A stretch of 64,000 nucleotides of DNA from Escherichia phage iGC_PHA_EC001, in the sequence record OR437326.1; one strand, 5' to 3'. Of this stretch, positions 2,690 to 2,905 are shown one piece after another (the first letter of the stretch is position 1; each line of letters opens with the position of its first letter). The translations under genes and the position numbers were made by a program. Below the pieces are notes generated by a model. That model was not told where the DNA came from, searched no databases, and was given only the letters and a program-made list of their open reading frames with translations.

Positions 2690-2905
2690 GTTGATGTAGT
2701 ACTCTGTACTCAAGTACTGTACTCCGTACTAGATTAATAATTATTAAATATTAATAATAAATAATTATTAGATCTAACAAACAGGTACAGTGTATCAGAA
2801 CTGGTACGTACAGATCAACTTCTATCAATTAAAAATAAAATAATAAATTATTATAAATAATACTTGATCTATAGATCAGTATGAAGTACAGTACGGAACA
2901 TCTTA
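2690..2905. promoter_or_regulatory. AT-rich divergent intergenic region with GTAC-containing direct/inverted repeats and perfect palindromes
   Basis: Five GTACT units at 2696-2732, further GTAC units at 2784-2812 and 2885-2897; palindromes AATAATTATT (two copies) and GATCTATAGATC; region separates leftward and rightward gene blocks. Confidence 0.5.

Follow-up and report, generated by a model that had tools for sequence, protein, structure and literature searches.

The divergent junction and its GTAC module

The 64,000-bp window analysed here (Escherichia phage iGC_PHA_EC001, sequence record OR437326.1) is part of a Phapecoctavirus genome (Stephanstirmvirinae; a phAPEC8/ESCO13-like E. coli myovirus of about 150 kb), and our subject is a non-coding gap of 479 bp (2445–2923) that separates a leftward from a rightward gene block. 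The leftward block has its first ATG at 2444 on the minus strand and consists of small genes of unknown function, farther left of which lie genes for a phosphoesterase, RNA ligase, polynucleotide kinase, DNA ligase, exonucleases, ThyX and ribonucleotide reductase. The rightward block opens with an open reading frame (ORF) of 61 aa (ORF61; 2924–3109, plus strand) and continues with two more small ORFs, ten tRNA genes (3902–5819) and the terminase gene (7322–9397), while the only small ORFs inside the gap are low-complexity frames of 20–31 aa. In addition to a predicted leftward promoter (P_L) and a predicted rightward one (P_R1), the gap appears to hold two distinct things, namely a second predicted rightward promoter, P_R2 (2827–2892), and a discrete, putatively cis-acting DNA module (about 2681–2826), which is a good candidate, as yet unproven, for a control switch or a site where replication starts. 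The 4 kb around the module are 97–98.5% identical to dozens of Phapecoctavirus phages, and the complete relative 536P1 (149 kb) served as the reference for whole-genome statistics.

An earlier note on this DNA had listed GTACT units, further GTAC sites and two kinds of palindrome in the gap, and every one of these elements was located in the sequence. Five GTACT units make up an array (2698–2732; starts 2699, 2706, 2714, 2719 and 2726) in which the 5-bp units follow each other at start-to-start distances of 7, 8, 5 and 7 bp, an irregular heptad-like spacing at which TRF calls no tandem array; three of the units read ACTC. The other GTAC sites, at 2785, 2804, 2808, 2886 and 2891, bring the total to ten within 2699–2894, and the layout is symmetric, with CTGTAC present twice on the left and GTACAG three times on the right. 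Such clustering has to be seen against the composition of the genome, in which GTAC is the most under-represented 4-base palindrome, with 72 copies observed and 206 expected in the window (0.35), and 137 observed and 443 expected in complete 536P1 (0.31). For at least ten GTAC sites in 200 bp, the Poisson probability comes to about 2e-14 (about 1e-11 when corrected for the number of windows), and across the whole 149 kb of 536P1 this cluster is the sole stretch with four or more GTAC per 220 bp. Four GATC sites also fall within 110 bp (P about 1e-3).

The region is also exceptional in its predicted duplex stability. AT tract 1 (2733–2770), which abuts the GTACT array, comprises 38 bp of pure A/T, is internally palindromic and carries both of the window's two copies of AATAATTATT (at 2736 and 2760), while AT tract 2 (2827–2863, plus strand) contains 36 bp of pure A/T (2827–2862); no pure A/T run anywhere in the 536P1 genome is longer than these two, and tract 1 is also the longest of the window. 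By nearest-neighbour stability, both the least stable 40 bp (AT tract 1) and the least stable 200 bp of the 149-kb genome lie here, the 200-bp minimum being −216 kcal/mol against a mean of −257 (standard deviation 9) and a next-best value of −227. Thus, the proposal of an unwinding-prone, AT-rich core is borne out computationally, by the genome-wide stability minimum and the two longest A/T runs. The AT-richness of the proposed core of about 150 bp holds as well, but its unity does not, since the two pure A/T tracts flank a mixed segment of 56 bp (2771–2826) with three GTAC and two GATC sites, namely GTAC at 2785, GTACGTAC at 2804–2811, and GATC at 2771 and 2813. AT tract 1 also forms the centre of an imperfect palindrome of 130 bp (GTTGAT...ATCAAC, 2690–2820, centre 2752/2753) whose arms contain GTAC. 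Its self-reverse-complement alignment score of 66, against 25 ± 6 for shuffled sequences, is the highest of all 216-bp stretches in the window, and as single-stranded DNA it folds to −18.6 kcal/mol (z = −3.7).

Conservation was contrasted by BLAST with 150-bp queries in about 64 records, the criterion being an identity of at least 99%. The module (2681–2830) reached this in 56 of 64 records, compared with 15 of 64 for the segment from P_L to P_R1 (2500–2649), 14 of 64 for coding DNA of ORF61 (2950–3099), 21 of 67 for coding DNA of ORF107 (2150–2299) and 36 of 68 for a terminase segment (8000–8149); for a tRNA-Met/Arg segment (3902–4051) the number was 62 (152 records matched, of which about 70 cover most of the query). 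The compared records are phylogenetically related and the counts are not independent, the contrast being made within the same genome set. In an alignment of 12 genomes, picked for their high divergence, per-column diversity was governed mostly by indels and by that choice, and the 64-record contrasts were preferred. Within the genus, the conservation of the module appears to be about that of the tRNA genes, which supports the view that it is functional.

Absence of the repeats from related phages, which the earlier note had named as telling against its proposal, is found in part: the repeats are kept across the genus Phapecoctavirus, but the array is missing from the sister group of phiWec179/190. 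In that group, which is about 80% identical in coding DNA, P_R1, an invariant 21-mer downstream of it, GATCAAC together with AT tract 2, and P_R2 are all retained, and between the 21-mer and GATCAAC there is unrelated, GATCT-rich sequence with no GTAC cluster. Therefore, the module at 2681–2811 is specific to Phapecoctavirus in the strict sense, whereas GATCAAC and the sequence after it, in the mixed segment, are homologous to the phiWec group. Among closer relatives, dw-ec lacks 13 bp corresponding to two GTACT units, phAPEC8 has one mutated GTACT unit and a 3-bp deletion, and the length of AT tract 2 differs by 1–10 bp. The nieznany record (MN850598) is broken inside the region; its ends overlap by about 230 bp, and one end copy has a deletion of 62 bp (window about 2791–2852), which may reflect either an assembly artefact at a palindrome that is hard to assemble or real population heterogeneity. 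A second divergent junction, at 76 kb in 536P1, spans 115 bp and has none of the features described above, which therefore do not come with divergent promoter regions in general. Gene order is different in Justusliebigvirus and Citrobacter phage Tr1, with no equivalent junction, and a search of IMG/VR with a flanking protein returned no homologues. As a side observation, the records of Campylobacter phage B15, Acinetobacter phage vB_AbaM_ABPW7, Klebsiella phage ZCKP1 and Dompiswa phage TSP7_1 are 98.8–99.8% identical here to E. coli Phapecoctaviruses, and their host labels deserve scepticism.

Predicted promoters and leaders in the gap

The description of the gap as a control region is supported by three sigma70-type promoter candidates, of which P_R1 is one of a family of six and P_R2 is nearly duplicated at the other divergent junction. 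P_L (2489–2517, minus strand; TTCACT-17-TATCAT) is predicted from a consensus scan with 9 of 12 matches, and the phiWec group, in which an extra gene sits upstream, does not retain its −35. The 5' leader of the leftward early operon (2445–2488, minus strand) contains a stem-loop, GCGTCTCTGACGC (2460–2472), which is conserved in the phiWec group, and a ribosome-binding site (RBS), AGGAGG, before the ATG at 2444. P_R1 (2597–2648, plus strand) combines an AT-rich upstream tract with a −35 TTGACT (2619–2624), an 18-bp spacer and an extended −10, TGcTACCCT (2640–2648), and is kept in the phiWec group. It is the first of six co-oriented promoters between 2619 and 6005 (starts 2619, 3106, 3663, 4250, 5212 and 5977, plus strand), which share the pattern TTGAC(T/A)-17/18-TGnTAnnnT and AT-rich upstream tracts and precede small ORFs and tRNAs; the predicted family has the appearance of a set of strong host-type promoters for early transcription. 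The module had been placed between divergent promoters; as P_L (2517–2489) and P_R1 (2619–2648) both lie to its left, it is situated inside the rightward leader.

Just downstream of P_R1 lies the 21-mer TTAACGAGCGCAGCGAGTTAA (2658–2678, plus strand; arms TTAAC/GTTAA), which is single-copy in the window and 100% identical in the divergent phiWec group. As RNA, its hairpin is not unusually stable, and no Rfam match was found for it. Exact copies are also present in unrelated metagenome contigs, and in the termite-type metagenome Ga0123353 the 21-mer forms part of a hairpin that has extended stems, is repeated and stands ahead of genes. Its reverse strand, GCGCTCGTTAA, is boxA-like.

At the right-hand end of the gap, the stretch 2827–2892 has the organization of a predicted sigma70 promoter with an UP element, in which TTGATC-17-TACAGT is immediately preceded by 36 bp of pure A/T. 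In P_R2 proper (2864–2892, plus strand), the −35 TTGATC (2864–2869) is followed by a 17-bp spacer with the palindrome GATCTATAGATC (2866–2877; a naive count places it one base later) and by the −10 TACAGT (2887–2892), which overlaps the GTAC sites at 2886 and 2891. P_R2 is conserved in the phiWec group, and the 9-mer TACTTGATC occurs twice in 150 kb, each time at a divergent junction (at P_R2 and at 76 kb in 536P1). The second junction has in common with P_R2 a downstream leader, GAACAT..TTAACAAGA..GAGG, as well. From this architecture and its near copy, AT tract 2, GATCTATAGATC and the two right-hand GTAC sites are the upstream tract, spacer and −10 of what is, by prediction, an ordinary host-type promoter for the rightward early/tRNA operon. 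P_R2 thereby accounts for about a third of the features originally listed for the presumed control element.

Downstream of P_R2, a leader motif, ATCTTAACAAGAT (2900–2912), precedes the RBS GGAGG (2913–2917) and the ATG at 2924 of ORF61 (leader 2900–2926, plus strand). This 13-mer, a small hairpin before the RBS, recurs exactly at two further sites in 536P1 (76,183 and 140,546), and the −35 block of P_R2, TACTTGATCT, is found again at the second divergent junction (536P1 76,211), with a 16/17 copy at 90,957; these recurrences suggest a promoter/leader cassette reused at operon starts. In addition, AT tract 2 contains TATAAATA, the T4 late-promoter consensus (2852–2859), of which the window has four copies. 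A similar late motif has been reported in rV5, without gp55/gp33 homologues (PMC3606486). Given the pure A/T sequence around it, TATAAATA is probably incidental in AT tract 2.

Candidate functions of the module

No replication origin or early regulatory circuit is known to have been mapped in Stephanstirmvirinae or in related rV5-like phages. In the literature on Phapecoctavirus, we found no transcriptome, origin or methylome study, and the rV5 genome paper tried GC skew and obtained transcription-linked shifts only (PMC3606486). The present analysis narrows the search to one 150-bp module, unique in the genome and conserved like a tRNA gene, in phages that are widely isolated and are used in therapy and biocontrol cocktails. 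The module appears to be a new form of a familiar class of cis-acting DNA, that of control elements or origins.

The reading that we tentatively favour is that of a transcription-activated unwinding element, or primary replication origin, consisting of a promoter and a downstream unwinding element, because it fits the uniqueness, melting profile, promoter context, gene-block divergence and conservation of the module. Host RNA polymerase would start at P_R1, about 35 nt downstream of whose predicted start the module lies, and run into the weak duplex; this would be opened, possibly as an R-loop or cruciform, by the transcript or by negative supercoiling in the wake of the polymerase. A replisome of T7-like primase-helicase and PolA would then load, and forks would leave both ways, each running in the same direction as the gene block that it enters. 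The GTAC repeats, together with the palindrome, would act as recognition or structure-forming elements that set the opening site or the bound factor. This proposal is favoured by the presence of the only GTAC cluster despite a threefold genome-wide avoidance, by the highest dyad symmetry, by the GC-skew minimum and gene-block divergence at the locus, by the GATC cluster, and by the GATC-rich equivalent in the phiWec sister group. Of the two parts of such an arrangement, the downstream unwinding element is found as the genome-wide stability minimum, and a promoter immediately upstream, P_R1, is predicted from its consensus match, its six-member family and its conservation across groups.

A replisome of PolA and primase-helicase with no known initiator would suit an origin that depends on transcription, as in T7 or at T4 oriF/oriG. 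The likeness of the locus to T4 oriF(uvsY) and oriG(34) and to the T7 primary origin, which is not a sequence match, lies in a strong predicted promoter that has the genome's least stable DNA within about 80 bp downstream, in the divergence of gene blocks, and in the replisome, since the rV5 group has PolA and a gp4-like (T7-type) primase-helicase with no known or recognisable initiator (PMC3606486). Unlike in those systems, the promoter here is of the host sigma70 type, neither MotA-dependent nor one for T7 RNA polymerase, and the two A/T tracts, the GTAC array and the 130-bp palindrome are not known from those origins. The term iterons, used in the earlier note, is not supported. The locus shares with iteron origins (lambda ori, P1 oriR, R6K/pSC101-type plasmids) a repeated motif beside an easily melted AT tract, here the 38-bp tract adjoining the array, and a GATC cluster nearby; in contrast, its 5-bp units stand 5–8 bp apart, compared with about 17–22 bp in helical phase in iteron origins, neither an initiator gene beside the repeats nor a DnaA box is present, two units are missing from dw-ec and the whole array from the phiWec group.

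Several points weigh against an origin. P_L, P_R1 and P_R2 are consensus predictions, and extreme AT-richness upstream of a promoter also looks like a strong UP element or upstream activating region. Neither a DnaA box (with at most one mismatch) nor a site for IHF (WATCAANNNNTTR) is present in 2445–2923, and no initiator gene was recognised, the flanking ORFs being without Pfam domains, falling into PHROGs of unknown function and having no sequence relatives in the PDB. The module is absent from the sister phiWec group, and relatives tolerate indels in it. The global minimum of the cumulative GC skew, a check proposed in the earlier note, does fall at the locus (window about 2534), but GC skew in rV5-like phages tracks the direction of transcription (PMC3606486) and the minimum is for that reason not independent evidence of an origin.

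An operator or upstream-activating array is nearly as likely as an origin. In this reading, the GTACT heptad-like units and GTACAG/CTGTAC would be bound by a small protein, of the phage or of the host, that would block read-through from P_R1, tune P_R2, or both, and so switch the early tRNA operon, much as ribbon-helix-helix repressors coat arrays of 7–8-bp repeats. This would explain the repeats and their conservation as well as an origin does, and would suit the contiguous short repeats at 7/8/5/7-bp spacing, the symmetric CTGTAC and GTACAG arms, the position between two tandem predicted promoters, the strong within-genus conservation, and the persistence here of a motif that is counter-selected elsewhere. 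The array (2698–2732) corresponds to about +45 to +78 from the P_R1 start and lies about 130 bp upstream of the −35 of P_R2; it overlaps no −35 or −10, its copy number varies (dw-ec), and the motif pair GTACTNNGTACT recurs at none of the other promoters in the window, all of which speak against an operator. Likewise, no DNA-binding domain was recognisable in twelve flanking small ORFs (Pfam, PHROGs and PDB), and the single-sequence AlphaFold model of the only strongly basic product, a 117-aa protein, was of low confidence (pLDDT 56) and too poor for searching. A TrpR operator was considered and rejected, as there was no match within three mismatches to GNACT repeats, and a crude Fis score over the region gave nothing above background. 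The known ribbon-helix-helix arrays (omega of pSM19035 on WATCACW heptads, MetJ on 8-bp metboxes, ParG on the ACTC boxes of parH) resemble the present one in their contiguous 7–8-bp units with a short core, in the ACTC of three units and in the location in a promoter region; they differ in that here no ribbon-helix-helix or other DNA-binding gene is recognised nearby, the spacing is irregular, and the array lies between promoters and not over one. Stable-RNA promoters with an UP element (rrnB P1, tyrT) are also comparable, in that a pure A/T tract lies directly upstream of the −35 of P_R2, P_R2 leads into the cluster of ten tRNA genes, and more conserved DNA lies upstream; unlike these promoters, the locus has no enrichment of Fis-like sites by the crude score, and AT tract 1 is too far away (about −95 to −130) to be an UP element.

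Explanations other than a DNA-binding or unwinding site appear unlikely. An element acting at the RNA level, that is, a long imperfect hairpin transcribed from P_R1 and serving in the early/tRNA leader as an RNase III-type processing site, stabiliser or small RNA, would agree with the credible predicted promoter upstream, with a conservation close to that of tRNA genes, and with the folding of the 276-nt leader to −63.6 kcal/mol (z = −3.7), in which the left GTACT units pair with the right GTAC sites. However, good folding as RNA is a property of any DNA palindrome, whichever strand is read; the apex of the hairpin, 38 nt of A and U alone, makes a weak helix, no significant stability was seen for the sub-hairpins, the sequences are too alike for covariation to be assessed, and a known RNA family was rejected, with no meaningful Rfam match in 2300–3900 at E ≤ 10; we hold this function to be improbable. 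A little less probable still is a non-functional by-product, in which slippage would have made the heptanucleotide repeat, accompanied by an inverted duplication, in a tolerant AT-rich spacer. In its favour are the indel variants among relatives, the absence of the module from the sister group, and the frequency in viral contigs of heptad repeats of arbitrary 5-mers (GTACT at 79 loci, the controls GTCAT at at least 120 and GATCT at 51). A widespread family of GTACT heptads was rejected on the same grounds: the pattern occurs at 79 viral and at least 120 bacterial loci, but the control motifs match as often, so that these are generic heptanucleotide repeats. Against a by-product, flanking coding DNA and terminase are both far less conserved than the module within the same 64 genomes, half of the GTAC sites lie outside the tandem array, and ten copies persist in phages from several continents despite the threefold purge elsewhere. 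The least probable of these alternatives, and a very improbable one, is a packaging signal or physical genome end, with a pac-like site in which short palindromes would cluster some 4.4 kb upstream of the terminase gene. The P1 pac site consists of clusters of a methylatable hexamer flanking a central region, a loose architectural likeness that counts for this idea together with the terminase gene at 7322–9397 and the break in the nieznany record. The genome ends reported for Stephanstirmvirinae are short direct terminal repeats (PMC12695924), and for BME3 a repeat of 342 bp was determined by PhageTerm (PMC12210895). The BME3 repeat region is homologous to a large non-coding region at 92.7–94.1 kb of 536P1, about 52 kb away and outside the window, and the present region is internal in 62 of 64 records; a genome terminus or pac site was rejected on the mapping of the BME3 repeat.

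Avoidance and modification of GTAC

A possible reason for the scarcity of GTAC emerged from the comparison of assemblies. In the nanopore-only assembly of BI-EHEC (OL505078), 22 of 47 aligned GTAC sites (47%) differ from the window, and 18 of these 22 read ATAC or GTAT; overall divergence from the window is 1.6%, and the next most-changed 4-mer stands at 19%. No such signature is seen in dw-ec, which came from the same laboratory and pipeline with another host (8 of 55 GTAC changed, rank 14), or in 536P1 (5 of 58 changed). The exclusive C-to-T changes point to misreading by the base caller of a modified cytosine in GTAC, or possibly to deamination of 5-methylcytosine, and we infer that the modification was acquired from the enterohaemorrhagic E. 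coli strain used for propagation. If this is correct, some hosts carry a GTAC-specific modification, presumably linked to restriction, which would explain the genome-wide purge of GTAC and make the retained cluster more notable. The clustered retention of a counter-selected restriction-site motif is a simple genomic signature, which could reveal cis-acting elements in other phages.

The locus may also be compared with the clusters of methylatable GATC sites in oriC, P1 oriR and P1 pac, where, as here, a short palindrome is clustered in AT-rich control DNA; GTAC, too, is apparently modified by some hosts, as the BI-EHEC signature indicates. In contrast to those systems, the site here is GTAC and not a Dam site, and the genome end lies elsewhere. 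An epigenetic sensor of host history, in which GTAC methylation inherited from the previous host would alter how the element opens or binds its factor and hence the firing of an origin or master early switch, is a speculative idea to which we assign little probability; no SeqA-like reader protein is known for GTAC.

Phage-encoded methylation of GTAC was considered and is unsupported, as dw-ec has no error signature despite the same nanopore pipeline. Methyltransferase-like ORFs are present in these phages: one of 264 aa in the window (51981–52775, minus strand), with EPSAGEGAF and NPPF motifs, belongs to phrog_5172 with a weak match to phrog_799, and one of 169 aa in 536P1 (120046–120555) matches phrog_799, 'DNA methyltransferase', with E = 3e-59; neither has a match in Pfam. 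The Schickermooser record also has a gene annotated with a Dcm domain (20767–21450). In samples of 2.6–5.4 kb from the phiWec/PsgM04F group, CTAG is entirely absent, with about 7–12 copies expected in each, and avoidance of GTAC is mild. Different lineages thus appear to purge different palindromes, GTAC being at 0.31 of expectation in Phapecoctavirus in the strict sense. Within the window, a GC-rich segment (47%; about 30,800–33,290, with an ORF of 743 aa at 30647–32878) has 14 GTAC sites and does not align to 536P1 or BI-EHEC, and is probably an exchanged tail-fibre or tailspike cassette not yet purged of GTAC.

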